A stretch of DNA of 20,791 nucleotides. Origin: Macrostomum lignano (lineage: Eukaryota). The position numbers were made by a program, and so were the translations under genes. The DNA lies in contig NIVC01002365.1 in assembly GCA_002269645.1 (NCBI GenBank), forward strand, positions 1-20,791, read 5' to 3'. Below the pieces are notes generated by a model. It was given only the letters and a program-made list of their open reading frames with translations. It ran no database searches and was not told the origin of the DNA. Below, one piece after another: positions 685-20,748 of this stretch. How positions within the stretch are numbered: position 1 is the first letter of the stretch; every line of letters starts with the position of its first letter.

Positions 685-1179
685 CTTGAAAATGACACCA
701 ATTGGTTTTTATTTTTGCATAAGAGTAACTTTACTATAATCGTCCAAAATATTGATTTCCATTAATCAAAAATTACCTTTTCTCATTTTGGCAGAAATAA
801 ATTGCCATTAATCCGAATTTCATTAGCCAAAAAAGTTTCCTTCATCAGCCCAAAACCCTTTCTAAATCAGCAAATAATGCTTATCCTTTCAAGCACAAAC
901 TCTTGATGGATATCGTCAATGGCCGGGGCATATTCTGATCCGCAGCAGGAGCTCAATATGCAAATCCCTGACGCCCTTAGACCCTCTCTCTATATTAGCC
1001 TAAATCAAAGGATCAAACCTTTAATGAATGCGCTGCTGGTATTTCCTTTTAGCATAAATCAGCATCACTTCTGTGTACTTTTTCATTATCTGAATTACAT
1101 GAGCTACTTGAGCCGTACTACCTGACTATCTGACAATCGCCTAACAACCTAACACCCCCCCCAACAATTCAGCCATCGT

Positions 1180-2476
1180 CCATGAGCCTTGAGATCTCAG
1201 CATTTCCCCAGTAAGCCTTTAGATCTCAGCAATTCCCCCAGTAAGCCTTGACATCCCAGTAATTCCCCCAGTAAGCCTTGACATCTCAGTAATTCCCCCA
1301 GTAAGCCTTGAGATCTCAGCAATTCCCACCGTAAGCTCTGAGATCTCAAAACTTTTCCCAGTAAGTCTTGAGATCTCAGCATTTCCCCAGTAAGCCTTAA
1401 CATCTCAGCAATTCCCCCAGTAAGCCTTGACATCTCAGCAATTCCCCCAGTAGGCCTTGACATCTCAGTAATTCCCCCAGTTAGCCTTGGCATATCAGCA
1501 ATTCCCCCAGTAAGTCTTGAGATCTCAGCATTTCCCCAGTAAGCCTTGACATCTCAGCAATCCCCCAGTAAGCCTTGACATCCCAGTAATTCCCCCAGTA
1601 AGCCTTGGCATCTCAGTAATTCCCCCAGTAAGCCTTGAGATCTCAGCGATTCCCCCCGTAAGCTCTGAGATTTCAAAACTTTTCCCAGTAAGTCTTGAGA
1701 TCTCAGCATTTCCCCAGTAAGCCTTGACATCTCAGCAATTCCCCCAGTAAGCCTTGACATCTCAGTAATTTCCCCAGTTAGCTTTGGCATATCAGCAATT
1801 CCCCCAGTAAGTCTTGAGATCTCAGCATTTCCCCAGTAAGCCTTAACATCTCAGAAATTTCCCCAGTAAGCCTTGACATCTCAGTAATTTCCCCAGTTAG
1901 CCTTGGCATATCAGCAATTCCCCCAGTAAGCCTTGACATCTCAGTAATTTCCCCAGTTAGCCTTGGCATATCAGCAATTCCCCCAGTAAGCCTTGAGATC
2001 CAAGTAAGCCTTTAGATCTCAGCAATTCCCCCAGTAAGCCTTGACATCTCAGCAATTTCCCCAGTAAGCCTTGACATCTCAGTAATTCCCCCAGTTAGCC
2101 TTGAGATCTCAGCGATTCCCCCCGTAAGCTCTGAGATCTCAAAACTTTTCCCAGTAAGTCTTGAGATCTCAGCATTTCCTCAGTAAGCCTTAACATCTCA
2201 GCAATTCCCCCAGTAAGTCTTGAGATCTCAGCAATTCCCCAGTAAGCCTTGACATCTCAGGAATAACCCCATTAAGCCTCGACATCGCAGCAATTAAACT
2301 CCAGCCTCGACATCTATGCAATTCTCCCAGCGCAGTAATTAGCCTTGACATCCCAACAACCCAACTCCCCTCTCCCAAGAATTCAGCAATCCCCTTATAA
2401 GCCTTGATAACTCAGCAATCCCCTTATAAGCCTTGACAACTCAGCTATTCCCGATGAGCTTAGATATCTTAGCAAG
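1180..2476. repeat. Minisatellite, 29-30 nt unit (CAGCAATTCCCCCAGTAAGCCTTGACATCT), about 40 copies, decaying to ~3120
   Basis: Directly visible tandem units with recurring variant blocks. Confidence 0.95.
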
Positions 2477-3216
2477 TCTTTAATTGATGGTTGACAGCAG
2501 TTAATCTATGATTGAACCAAAACTGACTCTAAGCCTCTAACCCTAACCCATAAGAAAATATTGGAATGTTAGCAATTTCGACAATGAGCCTTGAGCCTCA
2601 GCATTAAAGTAACTTCCTCATAAGCTTTTAAATCTAAATTTCATCGGAAGCCTTGACCTGTCAGTAATTCCCCGTAGAGCCAAAGCATTTAAGTAATTCG
2701 CCCCAAGAGCATTTAATCTTAGCAATTCCTCGATGGATCATTAATGATTGACACGACTATCGCTCTATAATTGAACCCTAAGCCTAACCCTTAACCTGCA
2801 GCAGAATTTCAGCAATTCCCCAATGAGCTTTGGAAATGTTAGTAATTTCCCCATGAGCCTGAAAATTGAGTGACTTTTGATACCTTTTGATATCCTGGCA
2901 CTTGCATTTCAACAATTTATTTCTGCAATTTCACAAATGAACCTTGAAATCAAAGCAATTCTCCCCAGAATGACAATTATAGCAATTCCCCTTGTGCCTT
3001 GAGATCTTATAAATCCTCCCATGAGTATTGATATATCACAGCAATTTTCCATACCAGCATTATGCTCGTAGCAATAGTCTTAGCAGTCTTAACAGTCTTA
3101 GCAATTCCCAATGAGACTTTTACTTTCGACAGGGCGCTTCTTTTATAATTGACATGATGATTCTTGTTCGTTTTTTCTTGCCTTTGCGTTTTCTTCTCTT
3201 TAAAAGAAGTTTTTAA

Positions 3217-3872
3217 TGAAATATTTTAAAATATATGTTACTGTTCTTCTTCTGGTCTCTCACTTCTATGGCTCTATGTCTACTTCAAATATCAATGTGA
3301 GAGCCAAATAACTGAGGCGGCGGATTCAACTGACTTTTCCTGATGATGCAAACACTTGATGGTAACTTACAGACCGTTGTATTTGATGGTCACAATCTCG
3401 AGATGTTTTCTCACAAAAATATAATGTCTAAGGTGGAATTCCAAATAAGAAGCTCGTTCGATTTAAGTCACAAGGTGTTTCTAGTTGTTCGGGTGAACCG
3501 AAGGTTCAGTCTATTGTAAAACGTGGATTGGGTGTTGGTTTAGCTTTAGTAAGTCAATTTATCAGTTTTGGTGTTTGGGTTGAGACCCTAACTATGTTAA
3601 TCAAAATTAGTCAAAAGGAGGTAGGCTGGGAGAAGGGCGAAGGAGAGAAAAGGGGAGGAGAGGCGGAGCGAGAAAGGGGGCGAGCTTCTTGCTTGGTTAA
3701 CATGAGCTTTTATAGTACTTTTCAGTCTTGATCGCATTGGATGGTACATAACTGTTTTTCATTGGTTGAGGTTGGGGTCGTGTCCTCAGCTTTTGCTATT
3801 TGGAGCGCATTCATTGGTTAAGATACATTCAATCTGGATGGGAACTTTCTTGAGTCAAAATGTATCACTTCA
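3217..3872 (-). repeat. 3' LTR (656 bp)
   Basis: Direct repeat of 17519-18175 with the same TG...CA boundaries; preceded on the minus strand by a purine-rich tract. Confidence 0.95.
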
Positions 3873-3887
3873 TTCGCTCTATTTTTC
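3873..3887 (-). promoter_or_regulatory. Polypurine tract (plus-strand primer)
   Basis: Minus strand GAAAAATAGAGCGAA (13/15 purines) abuts the TG of the 3' LTR. Confidence 0.7.
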
Positions 3888-5340: not shown

Positions 5341-6297
5341 TTAAAATAGTGAGCGATGATGGTGAATCAAGTCATAAAAAAGAGCATATGCCAGTCGAGC
5401 AAAATTAATATTAAGATCAGAAGGAGGAGAATGCTGAATACGCTTGATGGAGAAGGTATGAAGAGCGGCATACTCTGGCAAGGTGTTAGGATAGCCAACA
5501 AGATCATTTCGTATACTGTGAATATCGTATAAATATCGACGAAGCGGAGGACAAGAGAAAGGAAAGATAGTATGGGCAACTACCGAGCGAGAATAAAAAT
5601 CGATAATTATAAAAGCAAAGTTTCTTGAACGCGTTGAGAGAATGAAAACAGCGTGGGTAAAGAAAAAATTGTGCGGATACAAACGATTGAGCGTGCGTAT
5701 CATAGCTTTCTTAGTAGCACGAGGAGAAAATGGAGGAAAAATTTGATAAACATAAGGGGCGAGAGAATCGAAGGAGGTTAAATAATTTTGGAGCGTAGAA
5801 GTTAACTGCTGCGCCGAAAGATTAGCAGCATCATGGCGGAATTGTTGCCATGGGTAGCGCAGAGAGGAAAGCAACAGAGGCCAAGTGTCTTGGTTAAAGC
5901 GCATGCATGGTTGAGGGAGAGTAGAAGTAGAGAGTTGAAAGAAATCGTCGATAGACATATTAGGAGAAAAAAGAAAATGTAGGATTGGTACAAAGATGCG
6001 GCTGAGAACATCGTTCATAGTGGGAGAAAAGTTCTGTATACGTGGTCGTGAGTGAGTACGACGCAGCATACCAAATAGACTAATTCGTAGAACGCGGAGC
6101 ATTTTAGGATAAAAGCAATGGCAGCGGATAACATAAAAACGAGAGAAGAAAGCGGAGGCCATGCGTAGCCGTTGGGGTTCACCAATAGTTTCAGAATAAA
6201 ATATTGCTTCAGTGAACCAAGCAACAACGGTTGCGAGGCAAATAAGATCATGATTTAACTGTGGTCGGATATCCACTGGTTGCGGAAATGGATCCAT
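5341..6297 (-). CDS. Accessory ORF downstream of pol, unknown function (318 aa)
   Basis: Uninterrupted ATG-to-TAA ORF (MDPFPQPVDIRP...HHHRSLF), non-repetitive globular-looking composition, same strand as pol; no family recognised with confidence. Confidence 0.65.
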   Translation of the reverse strand: MDPFPQPVDIRPQLNHDLICLATVVAWFTEAIFYSETIGEPQRLRMASAFFSRFYVIRCHCFYPKMLRVLRISLFGMLRRTHSRPRIQNFSPTMNDVLSRIFVPILHFLFSPNMSIDDFFQLSTSTLPQPCMRFNQDTWPLLLSSLRYPWQQFRHDAANLSAQQLTSTLQNYLTSFDSLAPYVYQIFPPFSPRATKKAMIRTLNRLYPHNFFFTHAVFILSTRSRNFAFIIIDFYSRSVVAHTIFPFSCPPLRRYLYDIHSIRNDLVGYPNTLPEYAALHTFSIKRIQHSPPSDLNINFARLAYALFYDLIHHHRSLF

Positions 6298-6644: not shown

Positions 6645-9600
6645 TCACGACTTCTTGTTCTTTGATCTTAGGTTGTAGCCATGCGTCTGTGGCTGAACTG
6701 GTGGCTCATCAGTAGACGTGGTTTGCAGCGCGATGGACTTGCTCAATGGCGGCCGATGGTTGTGGTGGACCTGAATGTCATCAGTTGTGAACTCAGGTAG
6801 GTGACTAGGTCCAGCGCTGAGTCCATCTCCAGGCCATGGTTTCAGCTTGGAGGCATGCACCACGATTGGTCGTTCGCTTGGTCGGTTGACGTCAGAAATC
6901 AGTGCGTTCTGATCGGAGAGCCATGCTAATAGACGCATTGGGCCACGATAAGGATTGGAGAATTTTGTCTCCTTTGTTGCTGAGACATCCAAGTAGCATC
7001 GTGCACCTGGGCGTATGTAGCGGCGGTTGATCTTCTTGTCAGAGTTTTCAGCGCGCTGTTCAGCTGAGTTGTGCAGAAGTTCCTTGGCGACTTCTCTGGC
7101 AAGCAAAATAGCTGAACAGGTCAAATTGACTGGTTTAATAACGTCCATGTATGCAGTTGTCTGGTGTTCCATGATCCGTGCGTTGGGTGGCAGGAAGTCT
7201 CGAGCGAAGAACAAGTAGAATGGTGATTCATTCATCGTTGAGTGTGCGGCGGTATTGATTGCTAGTGTCACCGCAGGTAGGAAGTCAATCCAGAGATCTG
7301 GTTTGTCATGGACAAAGGCCGTAAGAGTTTGCTTCAGTGTCTTGTGTGCGCGTTCGACGAAGTTGCTGGATGGTTGGTACACCGAGGTGTAGATTAGATG
7401 GATTCCAAGGGCACCCATAAACTCTCGAAATTCTTGCGAGATGAATTGGGGTCCGTTATCTGAGATGATGTGTGCTGGTAGTCCTGCGAAGGCGAACACA
7501 CGGTTGAAGAGACTGTTGCAGATGGTTGCAGAAGTTGTCTCAGTTAGCGGGATTGTGAACAGGAATTTGCTAACGCCGCATTGGGCCGTGAGTATGTACT
7601 TGTAGACGTCGCGGCCGTGTGAAGCTGGTGGCAGTGGACCTACAAGGTCGATAGCCAAATGAGAGAAAACCTCGTTGAATTTGACGGCTTTGTGCAGCGG
7701 TCGCAGTCGAGGTGCTGTTTTCGCTTTGTGGCAGATTTCGCAGTTGTTAACGAAATTGAAGACGTCTTGCCGTAGTGTAGGCCAGTAGTAGAAATGACTG
7801 ATTTTGTCTGCTGTCTTTTGGTGACCTAGATGACCACCAAGGGCTGTCGAGTGGTTACTTGTCAAAAGAGCTTCACGGTAGCGTGTTGGTATCACGAGGC
7901 GGCTTCGTCCTTCGTCATCTTCAAAGTATAGAGTGTTTCCGTCCAGGAAATAACGTGCCAGGTGTCGGCGAACATATTGTTGGTCTTTCTTGGACAGCTC
8001 GTGAGTGGGTGATTTTTCCGATAGAAGTGCTTTGATTGTTGACAGTAATGGGTCTTGATCAATGGCATCCTGCAGTCCGTTGAATGTTGACAGCGATTGT
8101 ATCTGACAGACTTTGGGGATGCGCGAAAGGCAGTCCGCTACTACATTTGATTTGCCTTTCACATAGTTGAGAGTGAAGTTGTAATCTTGTAGCGCTAGAA
8201 TCCACTTCTGAAGTCGTTTTGAAATTGGCTGCTTGTCACTGAATAGACTCTTGAGTGGCTGGTGATCAGTGAAGACGTGGAACTGTTGGTAAGAAGCGTA
8301 GAGGAACACGTGTAGCTTCTTTATTGCCCAATAGATGGCGTATGCTTCGCGTTCAATCGGTGGATAGCGTTGTTCGGTTGGACTTAACGTCTTAGAATGT
8401 AGGCAACCGGGCGTTGGTGGTTGCTGTCGTCTAGCTGTGAGAGTACTGCTCCAATGGCGGTATCCGAGGCATCAGTGTGCAGGAAGTACGGTTTTCGCGG
8501 ATTTGGATGAACCAGTAGTATATCCGTAGAGAGAAGTTGTTTCAGCTTTTCAAAGGCTGTTTGCGCAGCGTTCGTCCAGACGAATTTGTTGGGTTTCGAA
8601 GATAATACTCAGAAGTGGCTGTACTACTCGTGAGTAGCCAGCAATGTGCGTTCGGTAGAAATTTGCAAGTCCAAGGAAAGATTGTAGTTGTTTAACCGTT
8701 TGAGGCACAGGAAAGGTCTTGATTTTCTCGATGAGGCTGGGGCTGGTCTAATGCCTTGAGCAGAAACAACAAATCCAAGATATTGTACCTCTGTTTTAGC
8801 AAAGATGCATTTTCGTAGTGAAATTCGCAATCCATGATGTCGTAACTTTTGGAAGAAGCGTTCGATTTCTTTGAGCATGCCGGTGAAGTCTTCGGCGATG
8901 AGCATGACGTCATCCAAGTAGGCAATCTGATTTGGAGAGTCAGCTGTTAACAATGCTACAAGACGGCACATTAAGCTAGGACTGGACTTGAGTCCTTGAG
9001 GTAGTCGATTGAATTCCCAAAGTAGGCCGTTGGGTGCAATGAACGCAGTGTATTTTGTGCTTTCTGGATCGATCCGAACTTGGTAGAAAGCATCTGCTAG
9101 GTCACAGAGTGTGTACAGTTTAGCGTTCTTCAATCGATGTAGCAAATCCGGAATCTTAGGAGGTCGGATGCTAGGAGCACGAATTAGCTTGTTCAGTTTT
9201 CGGTAATCCGTCACGAGTCTTAGTTGTCGGCGACCTTGAGCGTCGAGCGTCTTCTTTTCCACGAGAAGACATGGACTTGAGTATTCAGATTCACTCGGAC
9301 TGATGATTCCTTTTTGACGGAAGTTTTCGATGAGCTCATCAAACCGTTCTTGTAGTCCATGAGCGATTGGATAGGGTCTGGACGTGACTGGCTCAGAGTG
9401 TGGGTGTAGATGCAGGTGAGCCGTGTATTGGGTAGAGCAACCCATGTCGGTTGGCAGTAGTGCCAAGACGTCACGGTACTTGTTCATTAGAGTAACTAAT
9501 TGTTCACTCTGCTCGGTTGAGAGGTGCTGGTTGGCTTGTTTGAGTTGAGTACGGATCATGTCAGTCGTAGGTGCTTCTTGTTGCAGCGTGCGGAGACTGT

Positions 9601-10587
9601 TGATTTGAGCTGCTGGCGCACGATGTTGTAGTCAGACATGTTAGCCAGATTTCCAATGACTTGTTGAGGATGCAAGGTTTGCGTTGTCAGCGACGGGTTG
9701 GCAATTTCCACAGTGATAGTTTGTCCGTCCGGGTTGACAGAAACAAGGCAAGTTGGTATCATCAACTGGTGTTTCTGGATCGTGTGGTCCTTAGGGACGA
9801 ACAGGACAGGAATCGTTGGCTCATGTCGAGAAGAGAGTTTCAGCGTGACTTGGTGCGTTGTCTGTGGTGGTAACTCTAGCTTGTTTTGCATCACCGCAGA
9901 GGTTTCTTGCAACTGTTGGATGGAGTTGAGCATCGCAAATTGCTCATTGCCAAGCTTAGCTGTCGCTTTCGAGTAGTCGAATTGTAGTGGTATTCCCAGT
10001 GACTTAAAGGTTTCTACTCCTAAGAGCAAATCATAGTCAGCGTCGGGGGTGTCGAGCACAAAGGCCGATATCTTGTGGTTGCGTCCATCGATTTCGAGAT
10101 CAAAAGTAGCCTTTTTGTTGAGGTTTAGTTGTTGTCCTCCTGCACAAATGGCGTTCATGTTGGTGTCTTGTAATGGTACTCGAAGCTTTTTGGCGAATGC
10201 CGGTGAGATGCAGGAGATCGAGGCGCCGCTGTCAATGAGGGCGGTGCATCTGTGTCGAGTATGCGGTGCGTTGCGGCACCACAGGTTGATCATTGTTGCT
10301 GTTGTTAGGTGCTTCAAAACAAAGGCGTATGAGTAGTTTGCTGGCCATTTTGGAACTTTCGGTTCTGGTGGTGGTCTCCGTGGTGGCGGAAGGGTGGCAC
10401 GAAGTTCAATCGTTTCGATGGGTGCCGAAGGTGTTGGCGCTCGTCTGGTGGTATCAGTTGCTGTTGTTGGGAGTAGTCGTTTCGTGATTCCACTTGAGTT
10501 GGAGTTCGTTGTTGCCGCAGCACTTGTATAGTGTGCGTTCTGCCGTAACGGATGGTGCTGGCGACGCAGAGTCGGCCAAGATTGCAC
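6645..10587 (-). CDS. pol: Pol: aspartic protease, RT, RNase H, integrase; frame breaks near 9620, 8741, 8610, 8397
   Basis: ALIDSGAS (DSG 10233-10225) and DLLLG; DYRKLN, DLADAFYQ, LPQGLKSSP, YLDD (8920-8909), YLGF; LHTDASD, EREAYAI, TDHQPL; H-H-C-C zinc finger, IDLVGPL, SDNGPQF, VERAHKT; ends GYNLRSKNKKS. Confidence 0.96.
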
Positions 10588-13378
10588 ACGAAGATAATAA
10601 CGGCAATGTAGACGATTACAGCTGCTGTTAAGACGAACTTTTCTTGATAGTTTGCGACTAGTCGATCCCAGTTAAATATCGACGAAGACCATAGATTGAA
10701 GAGAGCTAGTTTTGAGTCCAGGAATGCACTGTCAGCATGGGCTGTCCTGTGTCGTGTTCGATTCGGAAGTTTGAAAACTGTAATCAGAAAATCGCGAGTT
10801 TGCATGAACTGGTGCATTAGGTCGGTCACCGTTATTGGGCTACGAAGTGAAGTATAATTGATATCTCCCATAGGTTTGAAGATGCTCTCGGAGACGGAAG
10901 TTTGCAAATCGGACAATCGATAGTTTTCATCGGATCTGACATTAGCGGTTGTAGGTTCAAACCTCGAAAAATTTAGTGTGGTCTTGAATAGCATCGATTG
11001 TTTAGGCAGGTAGTAGTGTGGGAAGGCGTCGCATGAGATTAGAGCTGGAGTAGCTGTGGAGACAATACGAGTCGTTGTATCCAAAAATCCAAGAACGGTA
11101 TAATTTTGTAGGCGGAATTCCAGTGGGGGCGCGTGAAGCATTGGTTCGTCTTGTACTTTGGTTGGACAAAGCGAAACTGATGTAGGGGTTTGCACTGGTA
11201 GACGAAGAGGTATCCAGCAATGGATCTAGCTCGCAAGAAAGGATCATTTAATAAGAGTCGAGCAGCGAGCGTTGGTTGTGTGTAGTATAACTGTCGATTG
11301 TACTTGAGATTAGTTGCGTACATCAGGCATTGAGTAGTTGCCAGCTGCCTCTGTACTTGGAGAAGATCTTTTCGAGCTTTACTAGCAGCTCCTTGTAGTT
11401 GTCCAGCAAGAAGTTCAGCGGATGCGAACGTTGATGAAAGTTGCGCAGTAGAGTTGCCTGAAGGGGCTGCGATGGTTTTGTCATCTGTGCTTCGCTTGTT
11501 GCGTGGTAGTAGTAGGAGATCCGGTTGACCACCTTGTGGTTCGTGATATGGAACTGCTAGATTCGTATGAATAGAAGCCAGTTGTGGATCTGTTGTTGTC
11601 GCTGGTGAGTTTGTCGTGAAGGTTGAGGTTGCAGACTTTGCTGGTGCACTGGTTGTGCTGCTAGAGGTTGAGGTTGTTGGCGGTAAAGTGGTGGTGGTAC
11701 GAGGTTGTGTCGTCACTTTTGTAGTCATCGTAGTTGAATCTGCTGTCGTTGTTGCTGCTGAGGTTGTAGCAGTGGTGGTTGTTGAAGTTGTCGGTGTTAC
11801 GGTTGTGGTAGGTATTGTTGTCGTTGTAGTCGGTGGCATTGTCGTCGTAGCTGGTGGTGTTGTCATTGTAGTCGGTGGTGTTGTCGTTGTAGTCGGTGGT
11901 GTTGTCGTTGTAGTCGGTGGTGTTGTCGTTGTAGTCGGTGGTGTTGTCGTTGTAGTCGGTGGTGTTGTCGTTGTAGTCGGTGGTGTTGTCGTTGTCAAAA
12001 TTGTAGTTGTTGGTGTTGATTTTGTAGTAGTTAGTATCGTAGTTGTTGGCGCCATTGTTGTAGAAGTGCTTGACGTCGGTGGATGATCAGGTCGCTCTTG
12101 TCGTAAAGGTTGCGGCGGTAGGAATTGTCGTGACTGAGTTGTCGTAGTGAAAGGATGTTGAGTCGTCGATTGCTGAACGGGTAATATTGTTGGTGGCGTT
12201 GGTAGTATCGCTGGTGGTGAACGACGTTTTTGTCTCGAAGAAGTGGTTTCTTCGCTAGTTTGAGGTTTTGGAGTAGCTTCTTCTAATGGGCTTCGTAAGG
12301 TGGCGAGAAATTCTGCTTCTTTGTTGTCGAGGATGTCTACGTATAGACCTTGCGTTGAAAGGTACAACGTCTTACGGACGCCAGTGCAGGTGAGAGTGTG
12401 AGTCGACGGCACTGGGTTGAAGGTTAGTCCCAATGTTTGATCATTAGTTAAGAACAAGCCTGAGTTTAAGTTGCCTTCAAGAGTACGAAATGGTTTTAAA
12501 GGACAATCAGCGAGTGGTGGAGGTGTCCAAATAAGATTTAGATGTCTTGGTCCTTTCACGTCAATTTGGTAGATTGCTTCAGTTTCCAAAGGATCCCAGG
12601 GGGATGTTAGTATTGGCAAAGGTAGGTTGAAAGCTCGCATTTCTTGTGCAGTTGTTTTAATTGTACAAAATTTGTCGGTGAGTTTGCAGTTGTCCATTGG
12701 GAAGGACAAAGATTCCATTTTTTGATCTGCTGTTGAGTAGGCTGGGATTCCGGTGATCACTGTTGTTACTATTTGTTCTGAATGGGAACCGGGAGTGCAA
12801 CGCACAGCATTTTGCGTGTTGAATGTCGATTGCAGGCGTTGGATAGACTGAGTTGACGCAGTCTTTAACACTAATGATCCATCAGGAGATAGCTTTGTTC
12901 GTGCCCAGTTTTCACAATCAGCTTGAGTGACTGGTTGCGGTTCCAACTCTACCAGGGCGGATGTCCAGGTTCTTATCACCGCCTTATCACATCTAATAGT
13001 GATTTTCTCGCGGAAACAGACAGTCATAACCAGGGAACTGGTTTCCACGTTTGTTGTGTAAAGTTCCAGTTTCAACGGGAGTGTCGGCGTTGTTTGGTGT
13101 TTGAGCTGTTCACAACGGATCTCATGTGGTATCGTGAAAATTCGTGGGATCTGGTTGTACGGACAGACCATTGGTGTGTCAATGAAGCCCTCGTGAGATT
13201 GTCTCTCAATCGATGGTGGAGTTGACGTCGTTACCGGCGTAGCGTTGGCTAGTGCGAAGAGTGAAGTTGCTAGGCACAGGAGAAAAAGTGTCAGTAGTGA
13301 TCGGCGAATTCCGACGGAAGCTTTCACGGTTTTCTCGCGGTTGTTGTTGCTGGTCGGTGGAGTGTAGGTGTCAGTCAT
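10314..13378 (-). CDS. env: Env-like class III (herpesvirus gB / chuvirus G-like) fusion glycoprotein; one -1 break near 11127
   Basis: Signal-like LLTLFLLCLATSLFALANA (13297-13241); Cys-spaced ectodomain; furin motifs RQKRR and RNKR; ATTQC...QPTLAARLLLNDPFLRARSIAGYLFVYQC...CFTRP(P)LEFR...GFLD...ISC resembles gB domains III-IV; sequons NST, NYT, NFS, NYT, NRT; TM FVLTAAVIVYIAVIIFVCNL (10637-10578). Confidence 0.85.
11868..11993 (-). repeat. Coding 21-nt tandem repeat (TTTPPTT) x6 in the env mucin-like domain
   Basis: GTAGTCGGTGGTGTTGTCGTT six perfect copies, with degenerate copies towards 11815. Confidence 0.95.
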
Positions 13379-15151
13379 TCTTTCAACCGTACAAAGGCGG
13401 ATAGAGTTGATAGTCGCAGAAGCAGTAGTCGGTTTTTTGAGTAAGGATTTCAGCTGCTTAGCGTCTCCAGAGTAGCGAATTTCGTTTCCAAAAGTCGGTG
13501 GGCGTTCATCAACTGTAGCAATGTGCATCAGTTGGGCAGACTCGGGAGCGTCGTGAGTCGTCCATCCAATCTGCGGCTGTTGATTCCATCCTAGGTGGGA
13601 CGTTTCAGGGTCCTGAGCAGTGATGGCGCGTATCGGTGGATATTGTTGTTGCGCAAATCTCGGAGGTTGTCGTTGATTGTTGGCGCCGTTGTATCGAGGC
13701 GGATAGCGTTGCTGAGGCCGGTTTCCATAGTCTTGACGGGGTGGAAATCGTGATTGTTGTGTCGCCGGTGGACCGTAGCCTTGTGTACGTTGGGCTCGTA
13801 GTCGGCACTGGTTAATAGAGTGTCCTGGTTTTCGGCAATAGTTACAGGTCAATCGTGGCGGTTCCTGCTGGTAACGATCCCGCGGGGCATCAGAGCCGTA
13901 TTGAGCTGTGTTCCTTCGATCGCTTGAGTTAGGTCGGAAGGGACGAGGTTGTTGGTCATTCCTTCGACGACAGTCGGCGGCATAGTGTCCAGGTCGACCG
14001 CAATGATAACAAGTGGGCTTCTGTTGCATATTAGCGATAGGTGGCTTGGTTTGTGTTTGCAGGGAGGCAACCACCTGCTGATTGGCTTCCTTCGTCGTTT
14101 TTTCTAAGGTAGTTAGACGCTCTGTGAGAGCTTTCAAGTCAGTGCCATCAGAGTCCATGGTGGAGTCGCGGATTTGTTCGGCGCGGATGGCCTTGTTGAT
14201 TAGCGTACTTTCCGTGGTGATATTTTGCTTCAAGAGTTCTCGTTTGATGTAGGGCAGTGCATTGTTGATAGTCGTAGCCATCAGGGTAGCAAGGAAGTCT
14301 CGGTTGCGCTGGTCGATGACAGCTTGGTTCGCGGGTGGTGTTTCCGGACCGGCACCTTCCGGAAATTCTTCCGGTATTTCCGGCATAGCTGACCTGAGCT
14401 TTCGACGAATGTCGGTGAAATAAGACAGGAACGGTTCGCCGTACTGTTGTTTCCGGGTTGTTGCATTATGCAGCGTTAGAGCCGAGCCAATGGTTACTTC
14501 CCGAAGGCGTTGAGATAGTGCCTTAATGGTGGCTGGATAAGAGGCTTGGACTACGGCAGAGAGGCGACTGTATTCGAGTTTAAGAAGGTCATTCAGTAGT
14601 CGCGGGAAGAGCCGAATCTTTGCGTTCTCCGATAGTCCAAAGGAGCGTGTGATCAAGTCGAACTCTTCAGTGAAGGAGCGGAAGTCATGCATTTGGTCGA
14701 TTCCTTTCAGGGATTGACGAATTTCAGCAAGAGCAGTAGCTGAGACGGGATGGTTTGATTGCAATTGCAGACTGCGGTTCATAACATCAGTAAGTTCACG
14801 GACAGCATTTGTCGCTGCAGCATCAACATGGGGAGCGCCGTCCTGATCAGCCATATCTAGAGTAGGTTCTTCAGCAATATCGTTTGGGGCCGGTTGAACT
14901 GTTTCGTCCGCGTCTGTTAGGATGGAACTGGGTGCTGGTGAGTGTGCACGGTTGTATTCAAAATGATCCGCGAGAGGGTTATTAAACTCAACGTTATCTG
15001 GTATAAACAGGTTAGGTACTGGTGAACTATTTCGTGGGAGCTGTTCACCTATTTGGCGGTCAGAAGTTTCTAAATTTTGTTCAGGGGGTCTGTTAATATT
15101 TGAGCTTTGAAAAACTGGTCCGGAACGTAAATCTCGGACAGGTGTGGTCAT
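13379..15151 (-). CDS. gag: Gag (capsid plus nucleocapsid); no stop, continues in frame into env
   Basis: First ATG 15151 (MTTPVRDLRSG); retrotransposon capsid-like segment (FTEEFDLI...RKQQYGEPFLSYFTDIRRKL); zinc knuckles CYHCGRPGHYAADC (14011-13970) and CNYCRKPGHSINQC (13846-13805); Q/P/R-rich tail. Confidence 0.92.
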
Positions 15152-15341
15152 TAACAAGAATTCAATCAATAATTTCAAGGCAACAATAGCACAAAAATGT
15201 AACTAATAGCAAAGTAGAGTGTCAAATTCAAAGTGAGCAAACGGCAGTGGCTTTCAGGGTTGCGGTTGGCGGACTGGCTGGGGAAGGGAGAGAAAGAGAG
15301 ACTGTGTGATTTTTTAACTGTTCTTTTGGAAACTGTGAATC

Positions 15342-15516
15342 TTTTGATCGGTTCTGAAACTTTGAATTTTGAAATTTTGAATTGAACTGCCGTTTTGATC
15401 GGTTCTGAAACTTTGAATTTTGAAATTTTGAATTGAACTGCCGTTTTGATCGGTTCTGAAACTTTGAATTTTGAAATTTTGAATTGAACTGCCGTTTTGA
15501 TCGGTTCTGAAACTTT
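15342..15516. repeat. 51-nt tandem repeat, 3 full copies plus a partial, in the 5' leader
   Basis: TTTTGATCGGTTCTGAAAC restarts at 15342, 15393, 15444, 15495. Confidence 0.95.
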
Positions 15517-16027
15517 TATTGAAACTGAATTTGATAAAGGAGCTCCTGAATGTTGGACTAGACGGACATCAGTGGTGGCCAATAAAATCGAATTTGTATC
15601 ATTGAAGTCGGCAGTATTCTTTTTCTTGAAGTCGGCAGTTTTCTTCTGAGAATTTGTTCTGGCTTTTTGAATTTCGAATTTGAATTTTGAACTATCTGAC
15701 GAGTTTCAGCTAGGGGGTTGATTTCATAATTTTAAGCAAACGTAGAGTAATGTTTTTGTAGTTTTATAAATTTGCTATTTTTTAATTTTTTTGAAAATTT
15801 TATAATTTTTTATTGATCGGACTGATCATTTTGTAACTTTAACATGATAAGAGCAGTACGGATTATACGAGATGAACTATAAGCAATGGTATTGTTTTTT
15901 TTGTGTTTTCAAATTTTATTATTTTTGCGATCTAATGGTTATTTTGAAGTAGTATTTTTGCAATGCAATTATAGACGTAACGAGGACAATGATAGAAAGA
16001 AAACCATGAACAAGAGACAAGGAAAGA

Positions 16028-17022
16028 TTATGGTACATGTATGGAGCTCGGGGAGTCGGTGCTGAGGAACACTAAACATGTATTGCCTTTGGCAATAGGG
16101 AGATGAGAGAAAAGTAGAAGTTGTTTGGATCTTAATCCATCATACAAAAACGGGAAATGGCTAGGAAAGGAAAAAAATTCCTGGGGAAATTGTTTATCAG
16201 AGATCGTGAAAAGGTCGCTGAACCGGAGAGTGAGTGGCAGGATGGAGCTGGCCTGGACAGTTTGATTAAGGAAAAGATTTTCTCGTGGGAAATGAAGTTG
16301 ATTGATGGCTTTAATTAAGAAAGGAGGTCTCTCTAGGAGATTAAGTATGCGCGCGAAGTCTGACTTGGGCAGCTTGTTTAAGATAAGGATTTGTTGGAGG
16401 GCACTGAAGCTGAATAAACACACAAGAAAATTCCCTAGCATCCTAATCTCTACATCAAAATGATCTATAAAGGGCAACCGCCAGAATCAGCAATCCGAAA
16501 AAACAAACTTGGGTCGATGAGGATTTGATGGATGGGGCTCGTGGGCTTTGCAAACAGTGAGTTTGGATTGTTTAATCAAGAAAAAGTGATGGAAGGCTAG
16601 GCAAGCGGTCTACGAAAATAAGCAAGGTTTTCCAGATGAAGCACGCAGGCTTGGCAAACAGCGAATCTTGGGCTTTAATCAAGGAAGATAATGAATGGTT
16701 AGACAAGCAACCTGTCTGATAAGCGAAAAAGTTTTCTGACAGCAAGAAAGTGGTGGCTCCAGATTTTGATTGATGTTTACTGTAGTGACTTGGTTGGAAT
16801 AGCTCGTCAGGTTTTTTTGCGTTTTCGTTCTTTCTTTCGGGCGCTTAACGGCGCAGAGAATCTAAGATAAGCCAGTTTTCTAGATGTGGCCACACACTGG
16901 GAAAAACCGAGGAGGAAATCGAATGGCTCAGTCGCTTTGGAGAGTTTCAAATATATATGAAGAAATCCAGAGCAGACTTTGCTATTCTGTGGAAAAGCAG
17001 TGAAGGAAGAGGCGTCCAACAT
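16028..17022 (-). other. Possible frameshift-broken ORF(s) in the long leader upstream of gag
   Basis: 71-aa ATG ORF (17022-16807) ending RKKERKRKKT, followed by open segments in other frames with recurring SLFAKP, LIKA and QILI peptides, then ORF 16477-16028; no homology recognised. Confidence 0.3.
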
Positions 17023-17503
17023 TAAATAAACTTGAACAATTGATGATGCCGCGGTCTTTTGAAAAATCGAAGCTTTGAAGCTTTAACAATTGAGGATCCG
17101 AATAACTGAATTGAATTTCTGCATTGAAGCTCTGAGGCTTGAGAATAAGAACTCGATATCAGACGTTCGACGACGTTTCTTGAATTGAAGTGAAATTGAA
17201 ATTGTAATTGTTCCGGAACGATAATTTATTGACTTTCATGGATCCTTTGAATTTGAAATAACTTGAATCAGGTCTCAGTGCACTGGACAAAACTTAGAAC
17301 CGATTTGAATTCTGAATTTGAATTTGAGAGCTCGTGATTTACGATTCATTCTTCGAATATGTATTATTGACAGTCTCGAATGCTCAAAGGGGAGGGGGGG
17401 GGGAAGCCAGTCCAACCGTTCACACCCATCAGCCACGCCTATAGCTGTCTACCCCATGCAGGGCATAGCGGCTATTGTGGTGAAAAGCATCGGAGGAAAA
17501 GTA

Positions 17504-17517
17504 CGGTCAGGGAACCA
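17504..17517 (-). promoter_or_regulatory. Primer-binding site complementary to tRNA-Glu 3' end
   Basis: Minus strand TGGTTCCCTGACCG starts 1 nt after the 5' LTR CA; it is the 14-nt complement of ...CGGTCAGGGAACCA, the 3' end of animal tRNA-Glu(CTC) as I recall it. Confidence 0.88.
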
Positions 17518-17518
17518 G

Positions 17519-18175
17519 TGAAATATTTTAAAATATATGTGCGTTATTGTTCTTCTTCTGGTCTCTCACTTCTATGGCTCTTGTTCTACTTCAAATATCA
17601 ATGTGAGAGCCGAATAACTGAGGCGGCGGATTCAACTGACTTTTCCTGATGATGCAAACACTTGATGTTAACTTACAGACCGTTGTATTTGATGGTCACG
17701 ATCTCGAGATGTTTTCTCACAAAATATAATGTCTAAGGTGGAATTCCAAATAAGAAGCTCGTTCGATTTAAGTCACAAGGTGTTTCTAATTGTTCGGGTG
17801 AACCGAAGGTTCAGTCTATTGTAGAACGTGGATTGGGTGTTGGTTTAGCTTTAGTGAGTCAATTTATCAGTTTTAGCGTTTGGGTTGAGACCCTAACTGT
17901 GTTAATCAAAATTAGTCAAAAGGAGGTCGGCTGGGAGAAGGGCGAAGGAGAGAAAAGGCGAGGAGAGGCGGAGCGAGAAAGGGGGGGCTTCTTGCTTGGT
18001 TAACATGAGCTTTTATAGTACTTTTCAGTCTTGATCGCATTGGATGGTACATAACTGTTTTTCATTGGTTGAGATTGGGGTCGTGTCCTCGGCTTTTGTT
18101 ATTTGGAGCGCATTCATTGGTTAAAATACATTGAATCTGGATGGGAACTTTCTTGAGTCAAAATGTATCACTTCA
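17519..18175 (-). repeat. 5' LTR (657 bp)
   Basis: Minus strand starts TGAAGTG and ends TATTTCA (TGAA...TTCA inverted termini); hand alignment to 3217-3872 gives about 20 substitutions and 3 small indels. Confidence 0.95.
18011..18120 (-). promoter_or_regulatory. LTR U3 promoter: three CCAAT boxes and TATAAAA
   Basis: Minus-strand CCAAT at 18120-18116, 18068-18064, 18043-18039, then TATAAAA at 18017-18011; all conserved in the other LTR (TATA 3714-3708). Confidence 0.7.
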
Positions 18176-18419
18176 CTACATGTACATTAGCTTCGACGAG
18201 ATCCTCATGCCTCTTACTAAATGGTGGGTTTTAGCTTGTTTTCATTTGATACTAGTCTGTACTAATTCTTGCAATGTTTTGTTCACTTAAAGTACAATGC
18301 ATCTGTATAGTGCATCTTGCAAAACGACAAAATATAAATGCAAAACTCATCTATACATTATATTATGTGCAATAAAATACTTTGATAAGCAAGACAGAAC
18401 AGATCGTATTTTTAATTCA

Positions 18420-20748
18420 TCAAAGCTTTGGCTGGAACAAAAACTCAATTTTTTTTCTGGCAGCCAGGCCGGCACTCAGGGCGGTCACTGCGCAGCCCAG
18501 CGATGCATTCGAATGCAGCAGGTAAATCTGAAAAATCAATAGTGCGCTTTCAAATCGAATGCTTGGTGAATTCTGTTAAACTTTTAAGAGAGGGGTTGGC
18601 AAACTTCGGCCCGCGAAGCCTCTCTTATCTGAGCCTCGGGTCCTGCGAAAATTCACGATAGAAATCCGGTCCGATCAAGGCCTGCGTCTGCTTTTTAGCT
18701 CTCTTCTCTCTAATAATATCTTCTATTTTCTTTCCTATTCTCTTCTCGTCTCTCCTCTCTCGTCTCTCCTCTCTCTTCTATCCTCTCTCCTCCCTTGTCT
18801 CTCGCCTCTCCTCTCTCCTCTCTCCTCTCTTGTCTCTTCTCTCTCCTCTCTCGTCTCTCCTCTCTCCTCTCTCGTCTCTTCTCTCTTCTCTCTCCTCTCT
18901 CCTCTCTCCTCTCTTCTCTCTCCTCTCTCGTCTCTTCTATCTCCTCTTTCATCTCTCTTCTCTCCTCTCTCCTCTCGTCTCCCGCCTCTCCTCTCTGCTA
19001 TTCTCCCTCGTCTCTTCTCTCTCCTATCTCTTCTCTCCTCTCTCGTCTCTTCTCTCTCCTCTTTCATCTCTCTTCTCTCCTCTCTCCTCTATCGTCTTTC
19101 CTCTCATCTCTTCTATCTCCTCTCTTCTCTCCACTCTCCTCTCTCGTCTCTCCTCTCCCTCTCTCCTCTCTCCTCTCTCGTCTCTTGTTTTTCTTCTCTT
19201 CTTTATTCCCTCGCATCTACTTTCTCCTATCTTTCTTCTCTCCTCTCTCCATAGATTCTCTATGTGGCCCTTGAAGTTAATAAAGTTTGCCTTTATATAA
19301 GAACGAAGCGCGGATGGCAATTCTCACCTCAGTTCCGTCTGGCTTAAGTTCGTTCAGCTCGGATTGCAGCAAATCTTGCAGCTGCAACAGAGAGGCAAAC
19401 AAGTTGCCACCGTAAGAAATCGCCATTGATTTGGGAAAAGTGACACCGTAGGAGCACTGGGCAATGGCTATGATGCTGTTTGCAATAGCTCTCGCATTGC
19501 GGCCCACAATGGCCTTACAGATTACAGCGATGCGGGACACATCGGCACGAGACAGGTTCTGGAGATCAAGGAGTCGACCAAGGTTCGCTGCCAGCTCCTC
19601 GTTAGGCGGACTCTTTTCGACATGCAGGGCGTCGAACAAAGTGAATACTTCGAAGCCTTTTGCTTGGTTTAGCGTCCAGTTCTCTCCAGCTGGTGACCAA
19701 GCATCGATCGCATTCGTTTTGATCAGAATGCGAATGCACCTTTCCAACAGGTGGGCAAACACGCGCCAGAGATAATGCACTCCAGTCGGAGCACCGCTTT
19801 CAGCTCATTCATTACACTTTTATCGAAAACATTCGCCAGATCATTGAGTTCGTTATTCTGCCGATGAAGAAGCCAGCCTCCGAGTTGACAACAACGCAGT
19901 GACCGTTACCCGTTGGTCTTCGGAGCAGCAGACGGTTGTCCAAGCTACACACTTCGAGGAAGTCTGGTCAGTTTCCAGGTAGGCCAGGTTGGCGCCAATC
20001 CGGTGGCACAGTACACCGATGGAACAGTCCGCACTGTTTCCGCCAAGAAATGCCTGATAAACGCCTGACAGCAGGGTGCCCACTGCGTATTATCACCGTA
20101 ACGATTTCTACGGTCAGGTCGATTCTCTTGAACGCTTCCTACAAATAATTTTTGGGAGATTTTACTGCACCATCTCTTGACTTCTGCAATTAGTTTTCAG
20201 GAAAATTCAGGCGAACGGAGATTTTTATGTGAACTTAAGCCTCGAGAAGGGAAGAGGAAAGCATAGGAAATGAAACTCGATCACAATTTCTAGAATGAAA
20301 GCATGCACTTGCATGAAACTTCAGTACGAAGTCGCTCCCACAAAGCCGGGCATTTGATAGCCCTTGGAAGCGGTCTGCACCGTTGCGCTGGCCGGCTGCC
20401 GCTGGGCCTCCACCCAGACGTCAAAGCCGGCTGCAACGCCCATGTAGACGGTGGCGGAGCCGCTCGTGCAGCCACCCGGTTGTCAACGAGCATCTGCTTG
20501 ATGCACAGAGCGACAAAGTCGGAGAACTTGCTCATCTGAGCTCGACGAAGCGACGGAGTCAGGACGAAGGCGCGCTCGTCAACCAGATTTAGCGGACTTC
20601 CGCGTTGAGCGACGCAGCACAATGACAGTTTAATGTAGTGATCGGAGCAGCCAAAGTCCATGGCTAAGCACGTGCCCGCGCCGCCGTGGTAAGTCGGCAA
20701 TGTCGGTACGTAGCACCAGCGGACTGGCAGCCTCTGCTGTTTCGCAGC
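18420..20748 (-). CDS. Divergent hexokinase-like gene, last three exons (20748-~20309, 20138-19328, 18527-18420); 5' end outside window; several frame breaks, possibly a pseudogene
   Basis: Ordered matches to hexokinase motifs: CLAMDFG (~FIALDLGG), FSDFVALCI (~LFDHVAECL), ASKGYQMPGFVGA (~WTKGF..GVEGA), VGTLL..CSIGV...GANLAYLE (~VGTMM..CEVGL..GTNACYME), VVNSEAGFF (~CINTEWGAF), LECIISG (~FEKMISG), VICKAIVGRNARAIA (~VCGVVSRRAAQL), SLGCAV (~SGKGAAL); acceptors TTGCAG, TTGTAG, TTTCAG and donor GTGAGA at 19327. Confidence 0.78.
18700..19255. repeat. Degenerate TC/GA microsatellite (polypyrimidine-polypurine tract) in the last hexokinase-like intron
   Basis: About 550 nt almost only C/T on the plus strand, built of TCTCCTC / TCTCGTC units. 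Confidence 0.95.

Follow-up and report, generated by a model that had tools for sequence, protein, structure and literature searches.

A predicted gB-type class III envelope protein in a Gag-Env-Pol gypsy element of the flatworm Macrostomum lignano

We analyzed a 20,791-nucleotide stretch of Macrostomum lignano DNA (assembly GCA_002269645.1, contig NIVC01002365.1, positions 1 to 20,791; hereafter the window), which carries on its minus strand a 15-kb Ty3/gypsy long terminal repeat (LTR) element bearing an envelope protein (Env). The sequence and structural models make it probable that this is a recently active, env-carrying Gag-Env-Pol gypsy "errantivirus" with an anciently inherited Env of the herpesvirus glycoprotein B (gB) type, which would bud and fuse by way of a polyprotein. 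The domain order is Gag, internal signal, Env, anchor, linker, protease, reverse transcriptase (RT), RNase H, integrase, and an open reading frame (ORF) of 318 amino acids; Gag and Env share a frame of 1387 amino acids (15202-11039, minus strand), and Env lies upstream of pol.

Sequence and predicted structure of Env

The initial annotation of the window had recognized a class III fusogen of the gB or chuvirus glycoprotein (G) type in a gypsy element, and both the gB-type fold and the gypsy assignment were borne out. All of the motifs that it named were found on the minus strand between 13021 and 11079: VCFREKITIRC (13021-12989), PVTQADC (12934-12914), QPTLAARLLL (11278-11249), ARSIAGYLFVYQC (11230-11192), CFTRP (11140-11126), LEFR (11123-11112), and GFLD (11090-11079). 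As it had also noticed at 11125-11129, the frame shifts between CFTRP and LEFR; in 13 of the 20 loci with the best scores, a single frame continues across this site. The frame shared with Gag, the place of Env ahead of pol, and the mucin-like insert described below were not part of that annotation. When the C-terminal half of a natural copy was compared alone with PDB sequences, gB accounted for the six best of 7 matches (best E 0.035). With a profile built from ten related Envs of the same genome, 24 of 26 matches at E up to 1 were gB, the best being Epstein-Barr virus (EBV) gB (E=1.6e-14), and with a 90-sequence profile, which included one named nyamivirus G, gB made up 54 of 55 matches (best 2e-23); rhabdovirus G was absent from the PDB matches of both profiles. 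The homology to gB spanned the N-terminal segment, domain II, the central helix, and the crown, and eight cysteines invariant among the ten Envs aligned with gB cysteines, an alignment from which disulfide bonds are predicted. Seven of the ten family members matched Pfam PF24664 (Monjiviricetes_fusion; best 2.9e-10). The Env pieces of the window family itself found no relevant family in Pfam or PHROGs scans, and an ESM Atlas search of the Env N-half returned mixed families (best 0.82), a lead only. Hydropathy windows of 1.62 and 1.72 marked the signal sequence and the C-terminal anchor, respectively (by hydropathy, not a dedicated predictor).

The structure was modeled with AlphaFold2 on a natural copy without substitution relative to the window in this region, using a 90-row alignment. 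The mean pLDDT was 68.6, with 321 of 847 residues at 90 or above and a disordered insert below 50. The model contained a long beta hairpin (residues 51-85), another loop near residues 128-136, and a helix of 47 residues (591-637), that is, a predicted fusion hairpin within a pleckstrin homology (PH)-type domain, a long central helix, and a beta crown. In a Foldseek search of PDB, the 30 best rows were all herpes gB (best E 1.8e-13), with TM-scores of 0.26-0.30 by query length, which refer to the whole 847-residue chain, about a third of it disordered. Among predicted viral structures, the G of Nyavirus midwayense ranked first (E 2.2e-19), gB seventh, and a chu-related G 27th. An independent structural aligner placed gB at ranks one to six (Z 9.4-12.1; the best with 427 aligned residues at a root-mean-square deviation (rmsd) of 11.9), and the crown domain alone aligned to gB with Z 11.9 (167 residues, rmsd 4.0). 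Below gB came PH domains, Chandipura virus G (Z 6.2, 197 residues, rmsd 6.5), rabies virus G (5.8), and the Bourbon virus glycoprotein (5.5). Thus, in the comparison with gB, vesicular stomatitis virus G-type, gp64-type, and chuvirus G proteins that the annotation had suggested, gB (Z 9-12) and nyamivirus G surpassed the rhabdovirus G and gp64 types (Z about 6), and a rhabdovirus G type was rejected. The likeness to rhabdovirus G noted for the N-terminal stretch held insofar as the model has a long fusion-domain hairpin on which Chandipura virus G aligns, but gB scored higher; the "chuvirus-G" label was supported in part. We concluded from these comparisons that the modeled Env is a class III protein of the gB/nyamivirus type.

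The ratio of nonsynonymous to synonymous polymorphism (pN/pS), calculated for seven diverged copies against the window (pairs that are not independent), was 0.07 in the Env N-half, 0.12 and 0.04 in two pieces of the C-half, 0.52 in the mucin-like insert between the halves, and 0.28 at the Gag end. Judged from these sequences, Env is under purifying selection.

Ancestry of Env and its element

The element showed the hallmarks of Ty3/gypsy: LTRs of the TG...CA form, a tRNA primer site, a purine tract, the order protease-RT-RNase H-integrase, and gypsy-type domains. The RT relatives bearing names were gypsy-type Pol proteins, and the RT was 97% identical to two M. lignano proteins. Membership in BEL/Pao was ruled out, since none of ten ORFs matched a Pao-type family of Pfam (E up to 0.1) and Env precedes pol. 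The genome contained at least 16 near-full-length Env matches at 93-100% (among the 40 of 151 candidates that were scored), and 131 protein matches to Env fell into at least seven families, with identity down to 22%.

Outside this genome, the Env profile detected 505 proteins at E up to 0.001, of which 150 were listed; among those listed, many had a zinc knuckle before and a protease after Env in one chain. Of 30 matches looked up, those with names comprised elements of nematodes (Meloidogyne, Globodera, Caenorhabditis tropicalis, Panagrolaimus, and Ditylenchus), two viral G proteins, a single protein from a ctenophore, and two proteins with bacterial labels. Close relatives also occurred in metagenome records, some labeled Kangiellaceae or Gammaproteobacteria (P0004, P0005, P0007, P0130, and P0159); the bacterial-labeled relatives are probably animal DNA in metagenome bins.

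The trees of Env and RT, a comparison that the annotation had called for, agreed on the subgroups A/B, C/D, and E/F/G and left the relation between flatworm and nematode elements as an open fork. In the RT tree, which was built without family H (the fetched locus had no RT stretch) and in which the window row is out of frame at its end, the flatworm families formed one clade (98) and the nematode-type elements another (96). In the Env trees (91 and 38 rows, chosen for coverage from the 150 listed matches, with viral G represented by five named proteins and herpes gB by none), the flatworm families formed one clade together with one metagenome protein (98), and the retroelement Envs and the five viral G rows fell on two sides (99).

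The annotation had also suggested an independent capture of the fusogen. That the window element freshly captured its class III gene from a virus is, in our judgment, very improbable: an approximately unbiased (AU) test rejected a capture inside the A/B branch (p=0.006), the families show co-divergence of Env and RT, and the best outside matches among those listed were Gag-Env-Pol proteins (E down to 2e-37), most of those with names being nematode proteins, versus 4e-18 for the first named viral G. What speaks for capture is at a deeper level: placing the flatworm Env clade beside nyamivirus G cost no likelihood (AU p=0.70), and no supported node united the flatworm RT clade with that of the nematode Gag-Env-Pol elements. 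For these two reasons, the flatworm lineage as a whole may have made an ancient capture of its own, which the test neither demonstrated nor rejected. Since the Env and RT trees share their subgroups and the AU test rejects a capture within A/B, these sequences indicate that Env predates the radiation of these element families, and one or two ancient captures are both compatible with the data.

A polyprotein route to release and fusion

Among 19 stretches fetched from sister families, six carried a single frame of 2458-2866 amino acids from Gag through Env, protease, and RT to integrase, and a natural copy of the window family was in one frame from Gag through Env to protease. Most sister families also had a hydrophobic stretch at the position of the internal signal.

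The linker between the Env anchor and the protease was rich in candidate budding motifs. P[ST]AP occurred in 8 of 10 family-representative linkers (0.3 expected from shuffles; one match in the other 19,589 amino acids), and [LI]YPx[LI] in 7 of 10 (0.1 expected). Motifs of these two types are late-domain motifs of the endosomal sorting complex required for transport (ESCRT) pathway and bind TSG101 and ALIX. Among 27 outside Gag-Env-Pol proteins, PPxY was present in six (0.6 expected) and P[ST]AP in three (0.3 expected). We regard the motifs as sequence evidence for budding as enveloped particles, which we did not find stated for such elements in the literature searched; a search for late domains or ESCRT in gypsy env retrotransposons found none, and a looser search likewise returned nothing on these elements.

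From the fold, the gene order, the single frame of uninterrupted relatives, the purifying selection on Env, and the motifs behind the anchor, we infer the following route. One polyprotein would be made, and its Gag part would fold in the cytosol. The internal signal would then thread Env into the endoplasmic reticulum (ER), where signal peptidase would free the Env N-terminus, and the anchor would return the chain to the cytosol, such that the linker, protease, RT, and integrase would hang on the Env tail of a two-pass polyprotein. Furin would cut on either side of the mucin-like insert and remove it, and the two halves of Env would be held, as those of gB are, by disulfide bonds linking the N-terminal segment with the central helix and the crown. 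Gag and Pol would thus both be tethered to the membrane at 1:1:1. The PSAP motif in the tail could recruit ESCRT-I, so that an enveloped particle is severed from the membrane; the viral protease would free Gag and Pol, and Env trimers would fuse the particle with a neighboring cell, with germ or stem cells as the probable destination of the element.

Several points weigh against this route. The element is known here from sequence and models, and no examined copy of the window family was open from Gag to integrase, the longest frame being 2086 amino acids. The ten linkers amount to about five independent lineages, and 17 of the 27 outside homologues had none of four motif patterns. Herpes gB requires partner glycoproteins, and Chary and Hayashi (eLife 2026; PMC13524379) treat the entry route of gB-only elements as an open question. 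Finally, 81 outside homologues had a median of 7 aromatic residues in the two fusion-loop regions and none had fewer than 2, and the single aromatic of the window family would fit a fusogen that is weak or altered.

As for expression, 20 of 24 sequencing runs contained at least half of the sequence words of the element, and none of these runs was recorded as RNA. Contigs from four runs on sister family G (L091, chosen for having no long mucin repeat) covered 30 of 30 bins and contained 6 joints; none of the six had splice-type ends and none led from gag to pol, although such contigs show presence and not absence and do not concern the window family.

The loops and the insert raise an alternative. 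The Env of families A and B, and of C and D, may have kept the fold and changed its job, serving as a glycan-shielded attachment or budding scaffold while fusion is carried out by an aromatic-rich sister-family Env (E, G, or H) in mixed particles or by a host fusogen; we consider this unlikely. The loop aromatic count of the window family, 1, is tied for the lowest of 91 aligned Envs (A and B2: 1; E-G: 7-8), and a mucin-type stretch occurs among the 91 only in families A, B, and B2, apart from one shorter run; sister families are also abundant in the same genome. The insert, 68% Thr/Ser/Pro, lies between RQKR (12235-12224) and RNKR (11503-11492); its length varied from 664 to 771 nt between anchors in the window and eight of nine copies (one anchor was missing in the ninth), with in-frame variants of 690, 693, 735, and 771. 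Against a changed job stand the low pN/pS of the loop-bearing N-half with its cysteines kept, and loop 1, which retains V, I, and W; moreover, the aromatic counts depend on an uncertain loop alignment, with model confidence at the loops of 62-86.

A second alternative is movement within the cell only, in which Env would anchor the polyprotein in ER or endosome membranes and budding would be directed inwards, with no cell-to-cell infection. Knowledge of the element from its sequence leaves room for such a route, the single-frame design would force membrane tethering on any route, and ESCRT is active at endosomes too. We nevertheless give it little credence, because a complete ectodomain of about 580 residues with a furin motif has been kept in all ten families, 23-46% identical to the window Env, and would be costly as a mere anchor.

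We also suggest a bolder combination, which we rate as rather doubtful. In the A/B lineage, a gB-type fusogen may have been remodeled to be mucin-shielded, doubly furin-cut, and nearly free of loop aromatics yet strongly conserved. In these Gag-Env-Pol elements generally, the budding signal may sit on the Env tail and not in Gag, such that a single polyprotein crossing the membrane twice brings about its own release through ESCRT. If true, this would represent an undescribed class III way of engaging membranes, or a division of labor between co-resident element families, in an animal amenable to RNA interference and transgenesis.

The window copy and its relation to known systems

The features of the window copy are listed in table 1. 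It has four frame breaks and fails the intact-ORF filter of PMC13524379, a filter that concerns this copy only and not the family. Two other copies without substitution relative to the window break at different places, and nine copies together have many frame shifts and one stop. Because shifts are many, stops are one, and identical copies break elsewhere, the breaks are probably assembly indels, and real indels are possible too. A programmed frameshift at the Env break was rejected, as none of 17 listed slippery heptamers occurs there and most copies read through.

Table 1. Features of the env-carrying gypsy element in the window
Feature	Position	Strand	Description
5' LTR	17519..18175	-	657 bp, TGAA...TTCA; 635 of 652 aligned bases identical to 3' LTR
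Primer-binding site	17504..17517	-	14 nt complementary to host tRNA-Glu 3' end plus CCA
5' leader, 2.4 kb	15152..17503	-	51-bp x 3.4 tandem repeat at 15342-15516
Gag	13340..15151	-	First Met 15151; PF00098; CCHC knuckles 14011-13970 and 13846-13805
Env	13340-10575	-	Predicted gB-type class III fusion-protein fold
Internal signal sequence	13241..13339	-	Basic stretch, hydrophobic core 13309-13253, ANA before likely cut; putative cleavage
Env N-half	12239..13240	-	Predicted PH-type domain into which the fusion domain is inserted; loop 1 at about 12991-12965 and loop 2 at about 12808-12782
Mucin-like insert	11492..12235	-	239 amino acids, 21-bp repeat, flanked by furin motifs
Env C-half	10638..11491	-	Predicted central helix of 47 residues, crown domain, and C-terminal arm; frame broken near 11125-11130
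Env transmembrane anchor	10575..10637	-	By hydropathy
Cytoplasmic linker, anchor to protease	10327..10574	-	PSAP late-domain motif 10431-10420; frame break near 10446
Aspartic protease and following spacer	9617..10326	-	DSG motif within 10242-10225; PF13975 E 2e-8; frame break near 9616
RT, RNase H, integrase	6645..9616	-	YLDD 8920-8909; HHCC, DDE, GPY/F-like; PF00078, PF17917, PF17921, PF00665; frame break about 8740-8400
318-amino-acid accessory ORF	5341..6297	-	Without family; purifying selection
Purine-rich tract before 3' LTR	3873..3886	-	
3' LTR	3217..3872	-	656 bp

The 4-bp flanks of the window element (18176+ and 3216-), GTAG and TTAA, differ, and a reciprocal pair (TTAA/GTAG) lies on another contig. 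The 3' LTR of the window is 99.8% like the first LTR of an array on contig C172, and the 5' LTR is 99.8-100% like its other two. The flank pairs suggest two insertions with 4-bp duplications, and these sequences further suggest that the window copy is chimeric, combining two very young insertions through reciprocal exchange or misassembly; the LTRs of individual insertions are 99.8-100% alike. Since the two window LTRs appear to derive from different insertions, dating from their 2.6% difference was rejected and no LTR age is given. The array on C172 is a tandem of two copies with three LTRs, flanked by TTAA and GTAG (loci L043-L046). The 5' flank (window 18176-20713) is also present on contig C1695 (locus L041), 99.5% identical over 10 kb including the element, so the locus was assembled twice. 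Repeats flank the element at window 1055-2500 and 18660-19230, namely a satellite array of 30-bp units and a simple repeat rich in CT, and the leader contains an ORF of 152 amino acids (16486-16028, minus strand) with no Pfam match.

The 318-amino-acid ORF was open in 14 of its best matches at 91-100% identity, with a pN/pS of 0.24-0.41 in 10 copies. It had no homologue among 705 candidates and no PDB match, and a fold search with its model (pLDDT 37.5) was uninformative. An Atlas search gave a weak lead to clan CE proteases (0.82-0.84), with His and Asp on adjacent predicted strands and no clear catalytic Cys; sister families E and G carry two Cys-rich ORFs after integrase that look RING-like by eye, one beginning with a myristoylation-like MGNA (L081:1507-2920, L083:8994-7587, L091:284-1655); family C has a different ORF of 266 amino acids there; a truncated relative of the 318-amino-acid ORF, 70% identical, lies near sister-type RING-like ORFs (L085:5392-4880, L086:4785-4273), a hint that families may swap their 3' regions; and joints deleting the post-integrase region of sister families were seen in several runs.

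The novelty of a gB-type Env in a gypsy element fails, because PMC13524379 already reports such Envs, in Gag-Env-Pol order, in flatworms. That study documents gB-type Env throughout gypsy elements, assigns the Gag-Env-Pol order to Nematoda, Bryozoa, and Platyhelminthes, and has gB-type as abundant as F-type Env in gypsy elements, which contradicts the view of the initial annotation that gB-like env is mainly a BEL/Pao trait. It tabulates nine Platyhelminthes elements, one of them from M. lignano, and 51 M. lignano ENV regions in ENV-POL order. With a Ty3/gypsy pol and a five-domain gB-type Env between gag and pol in a flatworm host, the window element fits its definition of GAG-ENV-POL gB-type errantiviruses. 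The window family differs in its tRNA-Glu primer site and 656-bp LTRs from the listed M. lignano element, which has LTRs of 863 bp and a primer site matching that of sister families E and G; the Envs of those families are 25-27% identical to the window Env. Five motifs of the window family were not found in the supplements of PMC13524379, as far as the entries show, and its main text, in the portions consulted, has no mention of polyprotein, single ORF, mucin, late domain, ESCRT, accessory, or aromatic. PMC12801592 classifies M. lignano LTR families; its main-text passages do not mention glycoproteins, and its supplements may list the window family. A literature search for envelopes of M. lignano LTR retrotransposons found none. 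Thus, the window family is apparently unlisted and a variant in its mucin insert, aromatic-poor loops, tail late-domain motifs, and conserved 318-amino-acid 3' ORF, features that are apparently absent from the searched literature.

Nematode homologues from Meloidogyne, Globodera, C. tropicalis, Panagrolaimus, and Ditylenchus resemble the window element in that one protein joins Env to a following Pol or to a preceding Gag, but they form separate RT and Env clades, lack the mucin insert, and have aromatic-rich loops. The nematode endogenous retroviruses (NERV) of Sacco et al. 2022 reportedly have a continuous gag-env-pro-pol frame, an Env likened to Nyamiviridae G, and extra ORFs. Herpes gB, in its postfusion form, was the best solved match by profile and fold, with its eight aligned cysteines, and EBV gB has, at the equivalent position, a short furin-cut linker that is rich in Pro/Ser/Thr and bears a basic site; however, structural identity is 8-15%, the window linker is far longer with two furin motifs, and the element encodes no partner glycoproteins. 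The Monjiviricetes G proteins (PF24664) provided the top predicted-structure match in Nyavirus midwayense G, whereas the Env of the window family itself has no Pfam match and the viral G rows keep their own side of the tree. BEL/Pao elements with an Env (PMC9094657) include Tas with a class III Env, the mosquito chuvirus-G captures, and Atlas virus with a single polyprotein that contains a class II Env; Env lies at the 3' end in Belpaoviridae, whereas in the window element it precedes a gypsy-type pol. M. lignano harbors at least seven related families that differ in loops (aromatic-rich or aromatic-poor), in the presence of mucin, and in 3' accessory genes, with very young insertions among them, and such differences bear on the question, raised in PMC13524379, of how gB-only elements enter cells.

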